Shown: in pieces, positions 1,379 through 15,893 of the stretch | Layout: each line of letters opens with the position of its first letter | How positions within the stretch are numbered: the stretch's first letter is position 1 | Virus record (IMG/VR): IMGVR_UViG_3300037420_000294 | Span: 1 to 42,311 of that record | Length of the DNA: 42,311 bases | Strand: one strand, 5' to 3' | Origin: a virus | Lineage: Duplodnaviria; Caudoviricetes | The notes under the pieces: model-generated | The model's database searches: none | Told to the model about the DNA's origin: nothing | Seen by the model: only the letters and a program-made list of their open reading frames with translations | Position numbers and translations under genes: made by a program

Positions 1379-1608
1379 GTCGGATCATCCCCGTCCGCGT
1401 CCGCGATTCCGAACTGAGCGGCGACGTATAGATCAAGCTGGCGCTTTGCCCATAGCCGACGACGGCCCTCGCAAACGGGCTGCGGGTATGTGCCCTTCTT
1501 CACGCGCTCGCGGAACATGGTCAGCGAGACCGCGAGATAGTCGGCCGCCATCGACTCACCCATCCGCGCAGGCCAGTCCGGCATCAAGGCGATGCGCTCG
1601 GGTTTCAC
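1360..1608 (-). CDS. xis: Excisionase / AlpA-like HTH
   Basis: 82 aa with AADYLAVS...YPQPV..GRRRLW pattern; overlaps the int start. Confidence 0.75.
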   Translation of the reverse strand: MKPERIALMPDWPARMGESMAADYLAVSLTMFRERVKKGTYPQPVCEGRRRLWAKRQLDLYVAAQFGIADADGDDPTWADFR

Positions 1609-2180
1609 CCCCCGATCGCCTCCTTCGCTTCCTTGCGGGCGGCGTTGAGCTCGGACATTTTCTCGTGGGAGCCGCCCTTGTCTGGGTGAACCGCAGCGGC
1701 TGTCGCTCGATATGCCGCGTCGATCTCAGCAGTCGTCACATGCGCGGATTTGATGCCGAGCACCTCGCGCCAACTCCGCTTACCCTCCGGAGCGGGAAGC
1801 GCGGTGAAGCCCTTGAACGTCTGCCTGACGACGTGCAGCCCGCCGTGGCGCATTTCCGTCCGGCGCGCCTCGAGCACATGATGGATCGCCTGAAGGTTGT
1901 CCTCAGGCTTGGGATAGCGGTCGACGGCAATGCAGCGCTGCTGGCCGTCCCATTCGAACCACACCGCGACTCCGGTGTCTGGCGGCCGGTCATTGCCAAG
2001 CGTGACGTTCGAGCTGATCGAAAGCGCGCTCACCGCCTTGCCGCTGTCGCGCCCGAACGCCTCCAACGACTTGCGGACGTTGTTCAGCGCGGCGTTCAAT
2101 GTCGTGCGGAATTGCGACGTCACCTTGCGCTCGGTCCGCGGCAGTCCATCCGGCCATGCGAGGGGATAGGCGGGGATCAT
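1605..2180 (-). CDS. Phage protein with C-terminal J domain
   Basis: Start MIPAYPLAWP overlaps the methyltransferase stop (ATGA). C-terminus WREVLG...HPDKGG...ELNAA is a J-domain HPD motif. Confidence 0.85.
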   Translation of the reverse strand: MIPAYPLAWPDGLPRTERKVTSQFRTTLNAALNNVRKSLEAFGRDSGKAVSALSISSNVTLGNDRPPDTGVAVWFEWDGQQRCIAVDRYPKPEDNLQAIHHVLEARRTEMRHGGLHVVRQTFKGFTALPAPEGKRSWREVLGIKSAHVTTAEIDAAYRATAAAVHPDKGGSHEKMSELNAARKEAKEAIGG

Positions 2181-4480
2181 GCTGCCTCGCTTTCCGGATC
2201 TTCGACGATTGCACTGACGGCATTCGCCGCGACCAGCGCCCTGGCCAGCGGCGGACAGACGCTGTTTCCGCACTTGGCCTGCTGCGCCGTTTCGGTGATG
2301 CGCCGGCCTTCGGCGTCGCGGTCGATGATGTAGTGGTGCCGAACTTCAAGCTCGACGAATGAATTGCCCGTCTGTGTTGGCGCGAGAGTGGACGAAGCGA
2401 TGGCATCGACCACAAAGCAAGATAAGATTATCAGCGTCGAGGCGGAGGTCCGGGAACTTGGTCCAACCGGCGATGTGATGGACTTCGTATCCGCGATCTC
2501 CGTAACGGTGACGCGTACCGCATCGTCCGCAGGTCGCGTTGTCGCGTCGCCAAATTCGCCTACAGAGCTGCCGCCAAGCATCGCTGGAGTGGAAGCGCTG
2601 GCGCTCGGTCGTTCGAAGTGGATCGGTTCGCTCGCGCCGTCGCCGTTCGACGGCGCAAGCGTTTGAGCAGCAGACACGATCTCGATAGGCAGGGGAACGC
2701 AAACGCTCTCGCCCGCAGACGGGGCATCGCTGGCGCAGCTTTTTGGACTGCTTAGCTGAAGAACCTGCCGCCCTAAGTCGATCAGCGCATGCACGGCTGC
2801 AAGTTCGCTTGGGCCGCGAGTTGATGATGACGAAGAATGCGGTTCCGCAGACTTCGCAGGGTCGATCTTCGCGGTCGCAAACTCGTGGCCGTCCACCGGC
2901 AGGATTATTGGGTCTCGCCATAAGTTCATCCTGTAGTTGCGGCTCCAGAATGGGAATCCCTGCGCGTTGAACTGCTCGCGCTTGGTCAGCATCCGCATGC
3001 CGATGTCGATGATCGCCCATTCTTCGCCTTCGACGGTGACGATCACCAGCCCGAAGCGGTCACGCGTGGTGACGGTCCCGAGCGGCCCGTTGGGGTCATG
3101 ACCTTCTTCCTCGTTCCCGTAATATTTCAGCAGGAAGGCGCGGACCTCGGCGAAGTGCGATCCGCCGGCGCTCACCGTGTGCAGCGGTTCGTCGACCGCC
3201 TGCCCGTCGGCGCACGTGCCGCGCAGCTTGACGAGGTTCGACGTCACCAGCGCCTGGTGCGGTCCCTTGGTCGTGACGACGCTGAGCGGATCGTCGAGCG
3301 GCTTGCCCGGATGCTCGGAAACGCCGCGGTCATTGTTGTATTGCGCGAGGAACGCCGTCACGAGCGCGTGCTTCGTGCCACCGGCAACGACAGTGCCGAA
3401 CGGAGCCTCTGCATCCATGCAGCGCGGCGCTTGCCCTTGGCGCTCGCCATTGCCCCGATGGATCAGACACGCGGACACCAGCCCGAGCGGACCCGAGCCG
3501 CCCGGGCGCTTGATGAAGCTGTTGGCCGTCACCGTCGCGAGCGGCTCGTCGATTGCATGTCCGGTAGCGCCGGAGCGGAACTTGGTGATGTGCGGCGTGA
3601 CGACGGCGAACTCGGGACTGGCGAGCACCGTCGGCAACGGCTCGTCGATCGGATGTTCGCCGCGCCCGCGCTTCTTGCCGCTCGCGTCACGCTCGCCGTG
3701 CGCCACGCGGACGATGAACGGCTTGGGATTTTCGAGCACGTAGCGGACGATCCCGCGCGCGATGCGCCGGCAGGTCGCTTCCGCGAGCGGCTTCTTGCGC
3801 TCGAAGATCGACGGACATGGGATCGACCAGTCGATGATTTCGGCGGCCGTGCGCCAAGGCAGGCGCTTGCCGGAGAGGACCTCTGGGCTGTCCGGACGCC
3901 CATGCGTCGGTTCGGGCCACACGATCGGCAGGCCGTCGCGCCGGGCAATCATGAAGAAGCGCTTGCGGATCGTCGGCGCGCCGTAATCGCACGCGCGCAG
4001 CTCGCGAAACTGAAGCTTGTAGCCGGCCTTGCGCAGCGAGCGGCACCATTTGTCGAAGGTCTCGCCCGCGCGTTCCTTGATCGGCTGTCCATCGAAGCCG
4101 AGCGGGCCCCACGTGCGGAACTCCTCGACGTTCTCGATCAGGATCAGCTGCGGCTTGACGCGCTGCGCCCACAGTACCACGATCCATGCGAGATCGCGGA
4201 TGCTCTTCTCGCGCGGCTTGCCGCCTTTGGCCTTGCTGAAATGCTTGCAGTCGGGGCTGAACCAGGCGAGCTCGACCGGCTTGCCCTCGGTGACGGCGAG
4301 CGGGTCGACCTTCCAGATATTGTTACGGATGTGCCGAGTTCCTGGGTGATTGACCTCGTGCATCCGGATCGCTTCTTCGTCGTGGTTGATGGCGATATCG
4401 ACCGCGCGGCCGAGCGCTTGTTCGATCCCGGTCGAGGCTCCGCCACCGCCGGCGAAATTGTCGACGATGAGGCCGCTCAC
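2177..4480 (-). CDS. C5-cytosine DNA methyltransferase with an in-frame insertion of about 205 aa
   Basis: Motifs DNFAGGGG (I), SPDC (IV), ENV (VI), RKRFF (VIII), RMLT.RE...QGFP (IX) and GNSV (X). The insertion lies between QGFP and YIID. Confidence 0.92.
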   Translation of the reverse strand: MSGLIVDNFAGGGGASTGIEQALGRAVDIAINHDEEAIRMHEVNHPGTRHIRNNIWKVDPLAVTEGKPVELAWFSPDCKHFSKAKGGKPREKSIRDLAWIVVLWAQRVKPQLILIENVEEFRTWGPLGFDGQPIKERAGETFDKWCRSLRKAGYKLQFRELRACDYGAPTIRKRFFMIARRDGLPIVWPEPTHGRPDSPEVLSGKRLPWRTAAEIIDWSIPCPSIFERKKPLAEATCRRIARGIVRYVLENPKPFIVRVAHGERDASGKKRGRGEHPIDEPLPTVLASPEFAVVTPHITKFRSGATGHAIDEPLATVTANSFIKRPGGSGPLGLVSACLIHRGNGERQGQAPRCMDAEAPFGTVVAGGTKHALVTAFLAQYNNDRGVSEHPGKPLDDPLSVVTTKGPHQALVTSNLVKLRGTCADGQAVDEPLHTVSAGGSHFAEVRAFLLKYYGNEEEGHDPNGPLGTVTTRDRFGLVIVTVEGEEWAIIDIGMRMLTKREQFNAQGFPFWSRNYRMNLWRDPIILPVDGHEFATAKIDPAKSAEPHSSSSSTRGPSELAAVHALIDLGRQVLQLSSPKSCASDAPSAGESVCVPLPIEIVSAAQTLAPSNGDGASEPIHFERPSASASTPAMLGGSSVGEFGDATTRPADDAVRVTVTEIADTKSITSPVGPSSRTSASTLIILSCFVVDAIASSTLAPTQTGNSFVELEVRHHYIIDRDAEGRRITETAQQAKCGNSVCPPLARALVAANAVSAIVEDPESEAA
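2346..2921 (-). CDS. HNH endonuclease with N-terminal Zn-finger repeats, nested inside the methyltransferase gene
   Basis: AGGA-N7-ATG start at 2921. Motifs CxxC/CSxxC, RDNATCGRCG, EVHHI, DNLILLCGRCH. Confidence 0.88.
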   Translation of the reverse strand: MARPNNPAGGRPRVCDREDRPCEVCGTAFFVIINSRPKRTCSRACADRLRAAGSSAKQSKKLRQRCPVCGRERLRSPAYRDRVCCSNACAVERRRRERTDPLRTTERQRFHSSDAWRQLCRRIWRRDNATCGRCGTRHRYGDRGYEVHHIAGWTKFPDLRLDADNLILLCGRCHRFVHSRANTDGQFIRRA

Positions 4481-13328: not shown

Positions 13329-15893
13329 ATGAACGCGCCCGATCCCTATCGCGCCTTTCTCGAGCAGAAGATCATCGCGCCGCCCGCGCTTGGGCTTCCG
13401 TGCGAGCCGGATGAGGTCAATCCGCTCCTCAAGCCCCACCAGCGCGCCTGCGTCGTCTGGGCGGTGCGCGGCGGCCGGCGCGGGCTGTTCCAGTCGTTCG
13501 GGCTCGGCAAGACTGTGCAGCAGCTGGAAATCGTCCGGCTGATCACGACAAAGACCGGCGAGCTCGGCCTCATCGTCGCGCCATTGGGCGTCCGCCGCGA
13601 ATTCATGCGCGACGCGGAGATGCTCGGGATCAATCTCGCGTTCGTCAAAAGCGATGCCGAGATCGCCGCGCTCCGACCCGACGATGACGTCGACCCGCCG
13701 ATCTTCCTCACCAATTACGAGAGCATTCGCGAAAGCAAGATCGACGTCGCCCGCTTCGGCTGCGTCAGTCTCGACGAAGCGGCCGTGCTGCGCTCCTACG
13801 GGTCAAAGACCTACCAGGAGTTCCTGCCGCTTTTCGAGCACGTGCCCTATCGCTTCGTCGCCACCGCGACGCCGAGCCCCAACCGTTACAAGGAGCTGAT
13901 CCATTATGCCGGCTTCCTCGGCATCATGGACACCGGCCAGGCGCTGACCCGCTTCTTCCAGCGCAACAGCGAGAAGGCCAACGACCTCACGCTCTATCCG
14001 CACAAGGAAGCGGAATTCTGGCTCTGGCTGAACAGCTGGGGCGTCTTCCTGCAGAAGCCGTCCGACCTCGGATTTTCAGACGATGGCTATGACCTTCCGC
14101 CGATCACGGTGCGCTACCATTCCGTTGCCTGCGATCTGTCGGATGCCGGCGTTGAAGGAAATGGCCAGCATCGCCTGATCCGCGACGCCGCGCTCGGCGT
14201 CGTCGACGCTGCGCGCGAGAAGCGCGACACGCTTGAAAACCGCGTCGCCAAGGTAAAGGAGATCGTCGGCGAGGTACCGGACGAGCATTTCCTCATCTGG
14301 CACGACCTCGAGGACGAGCGCCGCGCGATTTGCGCCGCGCTGCCTGACGCCAAGGCCGTCTATGGTTCACAGGAACTCGACGCGCGCGAGGAGATCATCG
14401 GCGACTTCGCGGACGGGCGCTTGCCGATCCTCGCTGCCAAGCCGGTCATGCTCGGCTCCGGCACGAACCTGCAGCGGCACTGCCACCGCGCAATTTTTGC
14501 CGGCATCGGGTTCAAGTTCAACGATCTCGTGCAGGCAATCCATCGGCTTCACCGCTTCCAACAGGAAAAGCCGGTCGAGATCGACATCATCCACGCCGAA
14601 ACCGAGACCGAAGTGCTGCGGACGCTTCAGCAGAAGTGGAAGCGCCACGACGAGCTGACCCGGCGCATGAGCGCGATCATCCGCGAATACGGCCTCAATC
14701 ATGAGGCCGCGGCCGAGACCTTGAAGCGCACGATCGGCTGCGAGCGGCGCGAGGAAAGCGGCGGGAATGGCCTCTGGCGCATGGTCCGCAACGACTGTGT
14801 CGATGAGGTTCGGCATATGGCCGATAGCAGCGTCGACCTTGTGGTGACGTCGATCCCTTTCGGCAATCATTACGAATATTCGGAGAGCTATAACGACTTC
14901 GGTCACACCGACGATCACGAGCATTTCTTCGCGCAGCTGGATTTCCTGACGCCCGAACTGCTCCGGATCCTGAAACCAGGCCGGCTTGCCGCGGTGCACG
15001 TCAAGGACCGTATCCAGTTCGCGAGCGTCACGGGAATGACCCGGCCGACTGTCGAGCCGTTCCACGCGGACACGATCGCTCACTTCCGCAAGCACGGCTT
15101 CGGCTACATGGGTCTAAGGTTCATCGCCACCGATGTCGTCCGCGAGAACAACCAGACCTATCGCCTGACCTACAAGGAGCTGCGCAAGGACTCGACCAAA
15201 ATGGGCTGTGGAAGCCCCGAGTTCCTGCTGCTGTTCTTCAAGCTGCCGACCGACCGCTCCAACGGCTATGCCGATGAGCCGGTCACCAAGAACGCGGACG
15301 AATACAGCCTAGCGCGCTGGCAGATCGACGCTGATGCGCTGTGGCGCTCGAGCGGCGACCGGCCGCTGACCTCGGCGGAAATGGCGCTGATGCCGCCGGA
15401 CACGCTCGCCAAGCTGTTCCCGGCATGGTCGATCCAGGACATTTACGATCACGAGCAGCACGTTGAGATCGGCGAAGGGCTTGCCGAGCGCCAGGCTCTC
15501 CCAAAGACCTTCTCGGTCCTCAAACCCGGCACGCTGCGCGATGATGTCTGGACCGATGTGGTTCGAATGCGCACGCTCAACAGCGAGCAGTCCCGGCGCC
15601 GCGTCGAAGCCCATATCTGCCCCCTGCAGTTCGACATCGTCGATCGTGCGATCCGGCTCTATTCAAACCCGGGCGACCTTGTGTTTGATCCTTTTGCCGG
15701 TCTCGGCACGGTGCCAATGCGCGCGATCAAACTGGGCCGCCGCGGCGCCGGCGTCGAACTCAACGAAGTCTCGTGGCGCGATGCGGTGCACTATTGCCGC
15801 GAAGCCGAAGCAGAGCATGCGGTCCCGTCGCTCTTCGACCTGATCGATGCCCCAATCGAGGATGCCGGCCTAGCGACGAGAAGCGCGGCCTGA
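13329..15893 (+). CDS. SNF2-like helicase fused to an N4C/N6A DNA methyltransferase
   Basis: Helicase motifs GLGKT, LDEA, TATP, QAIHR..R; methyltransferase motifs TSIPF, HICP and DPFAGLGT. Confidence 0.88.
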   Translation: MNAPDPYRAFLEQKIIAPPALGLPCEPDEVNPLLKPHQRACVVWAVRGGRRGLFQSFGLGKTVQQLEIVRLITTKTGELGLIVAPLGVRREFMRDAEMLGINLAFVKSDAEIAALRPDDDVDPPIFLTNYESIRESKIDVARFGCVSLDEAAVLRSYGSKTYQEFLPLFEHVPYRFVATATPSPNRYKELIHYAGFLGIMDTGQALTRFFQRNSEKANDLTLYPHKEAEFWLWLNSWGVFLQKPSDLGFSDDGYDLPPITVRYHSVACDLSDAGVEGNGQHRLIRDAALGVVDAAREKRDTLENRVAKVKEIVGEVPDEHFLIWHDLEDERRAICAALPDAKAVYGSQELDAREEIIGDFADGRLPILAAKPVMLGSGTNLQRHCHRAIFAGIGFKFNDLVQAIHRLHRFQQEKPVEIDIIHAETETEVLRTLQQKWKRHDELTRRMSAIIREYGLNHEAAAETLKRTIGCERREESGGNGLWRMVRNDCVDEVRHMADSSVDLVVTSIPFGNHYEYSESYNDFGHTDDHEHFFAQLDFLTPELLRILKPGRLAAVHVKDRIQFASVTGMTRPTVEPFHADTIAHFRKHGFGYMGLRFIATDVVRENNQTYRLTYKELRKDSTKMGCGSPEFLLLFFKLPTDRSNGYADEPVTKNADEYSLARWQIDADALWRSSGDRPLTSAEMALMPPDTLAKLFPAWSIQDIYDHEQHVEIGEGLAERQALPKTFSVLKPGTLRDDVWTDVVRMRTLNSEQSRRRVEAHICPLQFDIVDRAIRLYSNPGDLVFDPFAGLGTVPMRAIKLGRRGAGVELNEVSWRDAVHYCREAEAEHAVPSLFDLIDAPIEDAGLATRSAA

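Follow-up and report, generated by a model that had tools for sequence, protein, structure and literature searches.

The C5 methyltransferase locus and its insert

The temperate-phage contig IMGVR_UViG_3300037420_000294, analysed over its whole length of 42,311 nt and called the window here, carries on its minus strand an open reading frame (ORF) for a C5 cytosine DNA methyltransferase in which a complete zinc-finger/HNH endonuclease gene lies out of frame, within an insert that leaves the host frame open (Table 1). The host protein is recognized by a PF00145 match at residues 6-187 (E 2.8e-22) and by C5 motifs I, IV (PC), VI (ENV), VIII, IX, and X, which are present in order together with the catalytic fold; the motifs are numbered as in the C5 methyltransferase literature. 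The nuclease ORF starts 1559 nt into the methyltransferase ORF on the same strand, i.e., in the +2 (= -1) frame. An initial annotation, made from the sequence alone, had described a QGFP-[206 codons]-YIID layout where homologs would have about two residues, and within it a complete 191-residue zinc-finger/HNH gene in an offset frame. Both descriptions are correct, as insert-free relatives do have 2 residues there and the HNH domain is matched by PF01844.

Table 1. Features of the methyltransferase locus, in window coordinates
Feature	Position	Strand	Remarks
C5 cytosine DNA methyltransferase ORF	2177..4480	-	767 aa, without internal stop, open across the insert
End of motif IX (QGFP), 5' junction of the insert	2951..2962	-	sequence comparison with the empty allele
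Insert, putatively mobile	2339..2950	-	net 612 nt = 204 codons, aligned to insert-free L087
Motif X region (GNSV at 2269-2258)	2222..2290	-	in frame with the N-terminal catalytic domain only via the insert
Zinc-finger/HNH endonuclease gene	2346..2921	-	191 aa, +2 frame of the methyltransferase
HNH nuclease domain, aa 131-180	2382..2531	-	PF01844, E 1.5e-8
Predicted beta-strand at insert start, methyltransferase-frame aa 512-519	2924..2947	-	block pLDDT 89, model only
Predicted beta-strand at insert end, methyltransferase-frame aa 708-715	2336..2359	-	model only
Position of -10 hexamer, CAGGAT in the window	2928..2933	-	6 nt before the HNH ATG, overlaps AGGA

Alignment to insert-free homologs, which the initial annotation had proposed for fixing the junctions, succeeded with the allele L087, whose catalytic core is 99% identical to that of the window (90% over residues 1-510). 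Its junction reads QGFP-PD-YIIDRDAEGRRITETAQQAKCGNSV and sets the net insert at 612 nt after motif IX, with a 3' boundary that is fuzzy by a few nucleotides, as CAC CAC (2338-2333) pairs with CCC GAC of the empty allele. The distance from QGFP to GNS is mostly 23 residues in insert-free relatives. The window sequence is not an assembly artefact, because contigs of two other DNA runs, X4 and X5, match positions 2279-2660 and 2279-2833 without mismatch across the downstream junction, neither 2869-2925 nor the whole insert being spanned by any one piece. The joined, empty form exists as DNA in a contig of run X6, which links 2334-2952 with 5 letters between. Among the 12 runs listed with this stretch there is no RNA run.

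A large family of nested nuclease genes at one site

Searches with an HNH profile gave 215 confirmed viral loci, 80 of which were kept for analysis; the loci were found via the HNH gene and classified by methyltransferase motifs, not by openness of the frame. The HNH gene sits between motifs IX and X of a C5 methyltransferase in 57 of these 80, and two further loci with an open methyltransferase frame are cut by the contig end. The remaining 21 are other, non-nested HNH genes, 19 of them matching in the nuclease domain only. A scan of GTDB added one locus, in Vannielia litorea (L005). Together with the window and L005, the 57 viral cases make up 59 loci with both junctions, and in all 59 the gene occupies the same site and the same frame while the methyltransferase frame is free of stops. 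Homologous inserts with stops in that frame, named beforehand as evidence that would speak against dual coding, were looked for in this set and not found.

The HNH family is large. A profile of the methyltransferase-frame insert identifies 331 clusters (50% identity) at E<=0.001 and 214 such clusters at E<=1e-10 among 1.84 billion representatives; 115 of 150 listed clusters fit a strict pattern combining motifs IX and X, and the remaining 35 are for the most part recognizable as fragments or as motif variants. A tblastn search of 50,697 annotated phages with the HNH protein found 161 records, all below 60% identity, and a metagenome scan with a 3-sequence alignment yielded 142 pattern matches, none of them confirmed. 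Residues C131, C134, H148, H149, N165, C173, and H174 of the HNH protein are invariant in 54 aligned members, and its frame is under purifying selection (dNN/dSN 0.21, 17 pairs). The nearest solved relatives of the domain are the HNH domain of a group II intron maturase, the HNH protein of phage GVE2, and McrA, the last matching as 6ghc with E 1.8e-4.

Selection on the open methyltransferase frame

Stop codons in the methyltransferase frame are far rarer than codon usage would allow. In 46 non-redundant loci, recoded synonymously with the codon usage of each host gene, 170 stops are expected and none is observed, whereas the third frame of the same loci holds 697 stops against 651 expected. 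None of 558 at-risk codon contexts yields a stop, and all members are open despite divergence to 48% mean HNH identity and a GC content of 29-67%. Among the non-nested HNH relatives, 20 of 21 have stops in the corresponding frame, 1-8 each. The +2 frame is relatively easy to keep open, with about 3.7 stops expected per locus. Because none occurs where 170 are expected, we conclude that the open frame is selected in the family; a depletion test of this kind had been suggested by the initial annotation. The three stop-avoiding HNH codons that it had singled out in the window are also real (V31 GTC|A, L49 CTT|A, and L166 CTT|A, among 8 at-risk codons in total).

Beyond the insert, the motif X tail shows pN 0.20 versus pS 0.70 in 13 insert-bearing pairs. 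In the long filled ORFs, motifs VI (ENV) and X (GN[SAG]) are present in 35 of 35, whereas the strict patterns of motifs IV and VIII are found in 33 of 35 and that of motif I in 29 of 35, with variant spellings visible among the misses. Codon choice is fixed, or nearly so, at some HNH sites (H174 CAT in 23/23, C170 TGT in 21/23, F84 TTT in 16/16). As a class, synonymous HNH sites evolve as freely as single-coded controls, which counts against a strongly selected second protein.

Locus L059 (1497-2303), a member of the family, has a stop in the HNH frame with the methyltransferase frame intact, possibly a case of nuclease decay with the spacer retained. The database protein P0259 passes from the methyltransferase frame into the C-terminal part of the HNH protein, probably through a frameshift in this copy or an error of assembly, and P0013 shows the reverse join of the two frames.

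Predicted structure of the methyltransferase-frame insert

AlphaFold2 was applied to a fragment covering motif IX, insert, and motif X (150-row alignment, mean pLDDT 68.6) and to the full-length protein (83-row alignment, mean pLDDT 62.6). The fragment model predicts confident strands at both insert ends, a hairpin, a short strand, and two helices, joined by disordered links, and the full-length model repeats the same elements. In the latter, pLDDT is mostly >=90 in the catalytic core, 88-96 in motif X, and 83-89 in the end strands of the insert, and the model matches the solved C5 enzymes M.HaeIII and M.HhaI (E 1e-12 to 5e-11). All 45 loci that have a residue in the L714 column carry a hydrophobic one, and this holds for 14 of 14 loci in which the column falls downstream of the HNH stop. 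Fold searches with the insert model gave no significant match, with none in Foldseek at E<=0.001 and a best structural match of Z 4.6 (rmsd 4.0, 87 aligned); this outcome speaks neither for a novel fold nor for an established one. The initial annotation had regarded this product as a Ser/Ala/Thr/Pro/Asp/Glu-rich linker, which disagrees with the models, where it is predicted as a small folded core with disordered loops.

As to the fate of METHYLTRANSFERASE, the insert is best regarded as a tolerant spacer in which a small number of structural positions are under selection. A more ambitious proposal, which we hold only tentatively and consider somewhat doubtful, is that the overprinted frame has become a de novo alpha/beta domain whose paired end strands restore the geometry between motifs IX and X, so that the methylase stays active, while the initial 29 nt of the insert also serve as a sigma70-type -10 element that gives rise to a leaderless mRNA, with a -35 element possibly supplied by host Phe-Pro codons; three codes would then share one stretch. 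If this were true, splicing would have been replaced by a de novo protein domain.

Expression of the nuclease

In 40 of 46 loci the HNH start codon is found at an offset of exactly 29 nt from the beginning of the insert, and the bases before it are conserved at fixed distances: T-7 in 46/46, A-11 in 38/46, and T-1 in 37/46. T-12, T-15, and A-9 fall on third codon positions of the methyltransferase frame, and relative to the background of each gene they occur in 29 loci (10.4 expected, z 6.7), 26 loci (10.4 expected, z 5.6), and 23 loci (10.7 expected, z 4.5), respectively. The pattern TAnnnT is found in the promoter register in 26 of 46 loci and in any other register in at most 6. The family hexamer is TATAAT-like, with a perfect TATAAT in L032 and L039, and carries a TGn extension. 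From what is established for sigma70/sigmaA promoters, an extended -10 element in this register would have transcription begin with the start codon itself, at its first base. The conserved motif 6 nt before the HNH start thus implies a leaderless nuclease mRNA, and it is likely, judging from these alignments, that the nuclease is made from its own internal promoter; this appears more likely for the family than a ribosome-binding site (RBS) on the methyltransferase message.

The evidence that host Phe-Pro codons serve as -35 element is mixed. TTCCCA (2956-2951, minus strand) stands at the -35 position with a 17-nt spacer to the hexamer, and CCA is commoner in filled than in empty alleles (8/23 versus 8/86, p 0.005), but A-30 is not enriched over the own-locus background (14 versus 10.7, z 1.2).

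Six loci have an HNH start that is not at offset 29 (L014, L021, L026, L027, L028, and L034), five of them starting 12-24 nt further on; three of the six keep TAnnnT in the same register. Some of these members have a purine-rich Shine-Dalgarno (SD)-like word as well as the hexamer in place, which may reflect a switch from a leaderless to a leadered mRNA.

Distribution of filled and empty alleles

Among the 80 best relatives of the window methyltransferase, 76 are empty and 4 unclassified, and among 80 relatives of L008, 65 are empty, 4 filled, and 11 unclassified. In a FastTree phylogeny of 125 catalytic cores (31 filled, 94 empty), the label changes 14 times, 9 of these changes being forced by well supported branches, and the window is sister to the empty L087. 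The label is more clustered than in shuffles, which give a mean of 28 changes, and one AT-rich clade is filled-only, its empty relatives not having been searched for. The insert has a disjunct distribution over the host-gene tree at a fixed site, and such patchiness is what homing predicts; conserved catalytic residues combined with purifying selection are likewise a feature of homing endonucleases. Because of this patchy distribution, the invariant HNH catalytic residues, the purifying selection, and the relation to solved HNH nucleases, we infer that the insert has spread by homing. The suggestion of the initial annotation that a mobile HNH element spares its host gene by means of an open frame is supported by the absence of stops in the 46 loci, where 170 would be expected, together with the patchy host tree.

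Interpretation and alternatives

The window carries a +2-frame zinc-finger/HNH insert after motif IX, and we consider it probable that the methyltransferase is read through it unspliced, that the nuclease is made from its own leaderless mRNA, and that the element spreads by cutting or nicking insert-free alleles. The methyltransferase would be translated straight through the insert without splicing, while a promoter within the insert would start the leaderless HNH mRNA. In the models, the first and last ~10 insert residues would form strands and, with the hairpin and two helices, a small domain; this domain may bring both junctions together, so that motif X could pack back on the catalytic domain. 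The nuclease would cut or nick insert-free alleles, and homing would proceed by recombination repair in co-infected or lysogenic cells. We infer that the motif drives transcription, that both frames are translated, that the long protein is an active methylase, and that homing works through recombination repair.

Several observations weigh against this interpretation. The initial annotation was right that the 767-residue frame of the window has no internal stop, but at this locus alone chance would suffice (1000 synonymous recodings put the expectation at 1.4 stops and the probability of none at 0.16), the signal coming from the family, and the 46 loci that provide it are related and hence not independent draws. 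Bulk amino-acid selection on the methyltransferase frame is not seen, with dSN/dNN 4.66 in the overlap versus 4.70 in single-coded controls, nor does four-fold-site identity differ (0.41 in overlap and control), and site-specific codon fixation is marginally above control (p 0.048 thinned, 0.18 with all sequences). The mean pLDDT values of the models are modest, and more than 60 insert residues fall below 50. The end strands covary only weakly, though in one antiparallel register (19-218 z 3.2, 17-220 z 2.2, 21-216 z 1.6), and part of the first strand's hydrophobic pattern can be put down to the promoter bases T-7 and T-1. The count of label changes on the tree cannot separate gain from loss. 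In the window itself the hexamer is weak (CAGGAT, 3/6 consensus, without TG extension), and a consensus scan of the window gave no promoter match, its own -10 copy falling below the threshold.

This last weakness concerns the expression of the nuclease. Since the hexamer of the window is weak and overlaps AGGA and the consensus scan is empty, SD-led internal initiation stays a rival for the window lineage, where it is about as plausible as the promoter. The same anatomy with an HNH protein translated from the methyltransferase mRNA, without a separate transcript, is accordingly an alternative to which we give a minor share of probability. The AGGA at 2932-2929 (minus strand), 7 nt ahead of the HNH ATG, fits it, as do GGAGG in L005 and xAGGAT/xAGGTT in close relatives of the window. 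SD-like words, however, occur in just 12 of 45 loci, whereas the -10 motif is family-wide at a fixed register, and A-11 and T-7 are still present in the window copy. The RBS assigned by the initial annotation therefore exists as a sequence word; as the nuclease's own signal it is put in question by its overlap with the family-wide hexamer and by its scarcity among the other loci.

Removal of the insert by an unrecognized kind of RNA- or protein-level splicing, with the open frame as a fallback or as a requirement of protein splicing, appears very unlikely. It would agree with the predicted ordered strands at the insert ends, which resemble intein ends. Against it, Rfam gives no match at E<=1 in 2000-3300, and less than 45 nt of the insert lie outside the HNH gene (29 nt before it, about 7-13 nt after it). 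A ribozyme is unlikely because this is too little sequence, and a group I or group II intron was rejected on both grounds. The insert length is a multiple of 3 in 59 of 59 loci, in part through the in-frame selection of the loci. Inteins have C/S/A at the N-terminus, HN/N at the C-terminus, C/S/T at the +1 position, and a Hint domain (see PMC11855218). The insert begins with E/D in 110 of 150 cases and ends with G in 110 of 150, and the next residue is Y/W/F/H in all 150, never C/S/T. No Pfam family, and so no Hint domain, was found in three inserts searched, and inteins are not among the fold matches listed. An intein was rejected, its termini and Hint domain not being found, and the initial annotation, which had seen neither intein termini nor a recognizable intron, is upheld. 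Translational bypassing was also rejected, as there is no stop after the junction and no need for a bypass.

It is similarly hard to believe that the element is a domesticated nested restriction-modification or anti-competitor module, in which the phage would benefit from the nuclease and the methyltransferase would confer self-protection. Its relation to McrA, the McrA-like names given to some members by a source, and the filled-only AT-rich clade, for which empty relatives were not searched, would favor such a module. However, a single nuclease family occurs in very different methyltransferase subfamilies whose variable regions are unrelated, the tree intersperses filled with empty alleles, and the maturase HNH domain and phage HNH match better than McrA. 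Least credible to us is a dead long methyltransferase whose open frame is a by-product of codon structure or of recent insertion. The low stop expectation in the +2 frame, about 3.7 per locus and 1.4 in the window, and the undetected bulk amino-acid selection would be in line with it, but the stop-free at-risk contexts, the openness across divergent members, the purifying selection on motif X past the insert, and the L059 locus, where a stop stands in the HNH frame and none in that of the methyltransferase, all argue the other way.

Genomic context and related arrangements

The gene set of the window is that of a temperate phage (integrase, RecT, RecE-like exonuclease, repressor, terminase, portal, and capsid), and the integrase, RecT, RecE-like, and repressor genes lie in the early region near the methyltransferase. 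A gene at 1605-2180 (minus strand) overlaps the methyltransferase stop codon and encodes a small protein with a C-terminal DnaJ-like domain; such a gene also occurs near the methyltransferase of L002. The variable region of the methyltransferase (3060-3650, minus strand) contains several 'EPLxTVT'-like repeat units, which are poorly modelled and vary in copy number among relatives. A fused helicase-methylase is encoded at 13329-15893.

In L073 (2920-4941), an HNH gene of a different subfamily (3204-3764) lies in the +2 frame of an open N6/N4-type methylase, a further independent hidden HNH. In L086 (2973-4932), a close relative of this HNH occupies apparently the same methylase site, and the methylase is split there into a 72-aa N-terminal ORF, the HNH gene, and a 396-aa ORF that has an ATG of its own. 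One methylase site seems to harbor both solutions, read-through and split genes. L060 (2918-4986) has an N6/N4-type methylase as two ORFs of 133 and 319 aa around a 266-aa zinc-finger/HNH gene. In L067 (2976-4743), L070 (1789-3430), and L074 (3165-3950), the HNH gene lies between a helicase-like C-terminus and a methylase ORF overlapping the HNH end, an arrangement that resembles the free-standing HNH genes beside methylases described in PMC11855218.

Comparison with known systems

In Aeh1 nrdA/mobE, an unspliced HNH gene with its own promoter resides within a host gene, and the host protein is made as two polypeptides. The window shares the non-spliced HNH gene inside a host gene and differs in its continuous host frame. 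In EcoHK31I, the second frame gives a methylase subunit; a two-frame enzyme of this type was set aside, since the second frame here is a nuclease.

Closer in kind is the ShiLan domain, a hidden out-of-frame HNH in the gp65 methylase of mycobacteriophage ShiLan (Gosselin et al., 2023, PMC9957025; Arsenault, Gosselin and Gogarten, 2025, PMC11855218), whose spread is patchy (Gosselin et al., 2023). It too is an insert of about 200 codons in a phage DNA methylase, with an open host frame, a patchy distribution, and no signs of intron or intein, and a same-strand zinc-finger/HNH gene in the third (+2) frame takes up nearly all of it. The Pacc40 gp60 insert (PMC11855218, section 3.6) is likewise a +2-frame HNH-like nuclease ORF in an open helicase-methylase gene; it differs in host protein, site, and nuclease type. 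Both phage loci, ShiLan and Pacc40, were examined and have N6/N4 methylases as hosts. Both arrangements are described there computationally only, and leaderless initiation of the hidden HNH from a larger transcript is proposed; the words 'promoter', 'cytosine', and 'selection' do not occur in PMC11855218. This kind of arrangement has thus been known since 2025, and the novelty of kind that the initial annotation had entertained does not stand.

On sequence grounds, the window element seems to work in the manner of the ShiLan domain, yet it falls outside the ShiLan family, because the hosts differ (N6/N4 methylase, PF01555, versus C5 enzyme, PF00145), the HNH domains differ (central PF13392 in ShiLan, C-terminal PF01844 in the window), and neither ShiLan protein aligns with the window proteins (E 0.12 and 0.64). 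ShiLan was not found among the 50 matches listed of the 161 records in the tblastn search. About 10 phages carry the ShiLan domain according to PMC11855218, versus 214-331 clusters in the C5 family, and ShiLan lacks TAnnnT in the register where the C5 family has its conserved -10 motif. Inteins with out-of-frame or antisense homing endonucleases (bioRxiv 10.1101/2025.01.02.630785) likewise have a nuclease overprinted on an open host frame but possess splicing domains and termini, none of which is seen in the window insert. In the literature beyond PMC11855218, searched with most subscription journals outside its reach, no C5-specific or promoter-bearing precedent was found.

New in the present case are an independent, large C5 family, a natural pair of filled and empty alleles, a promoter-like leader, and a fold that is predicted to clamp the insert ends. 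The 2025 paper does not settle by what route such a nuclease is made, or whether the host enzyme remains functional with the insert in place. The C5 family offers sharp tests of both, namely a transcription start predicted for the nuclease gene's first base and a filled/empty pair whose catalytic cores are 99% identical. In hundreds of entries for long C5 methyltransferases a second gene lies hidden, one that annotation usually misses, and the family provides an extensive natural series in which to follow how overprinting might give rise to a new folded domain.

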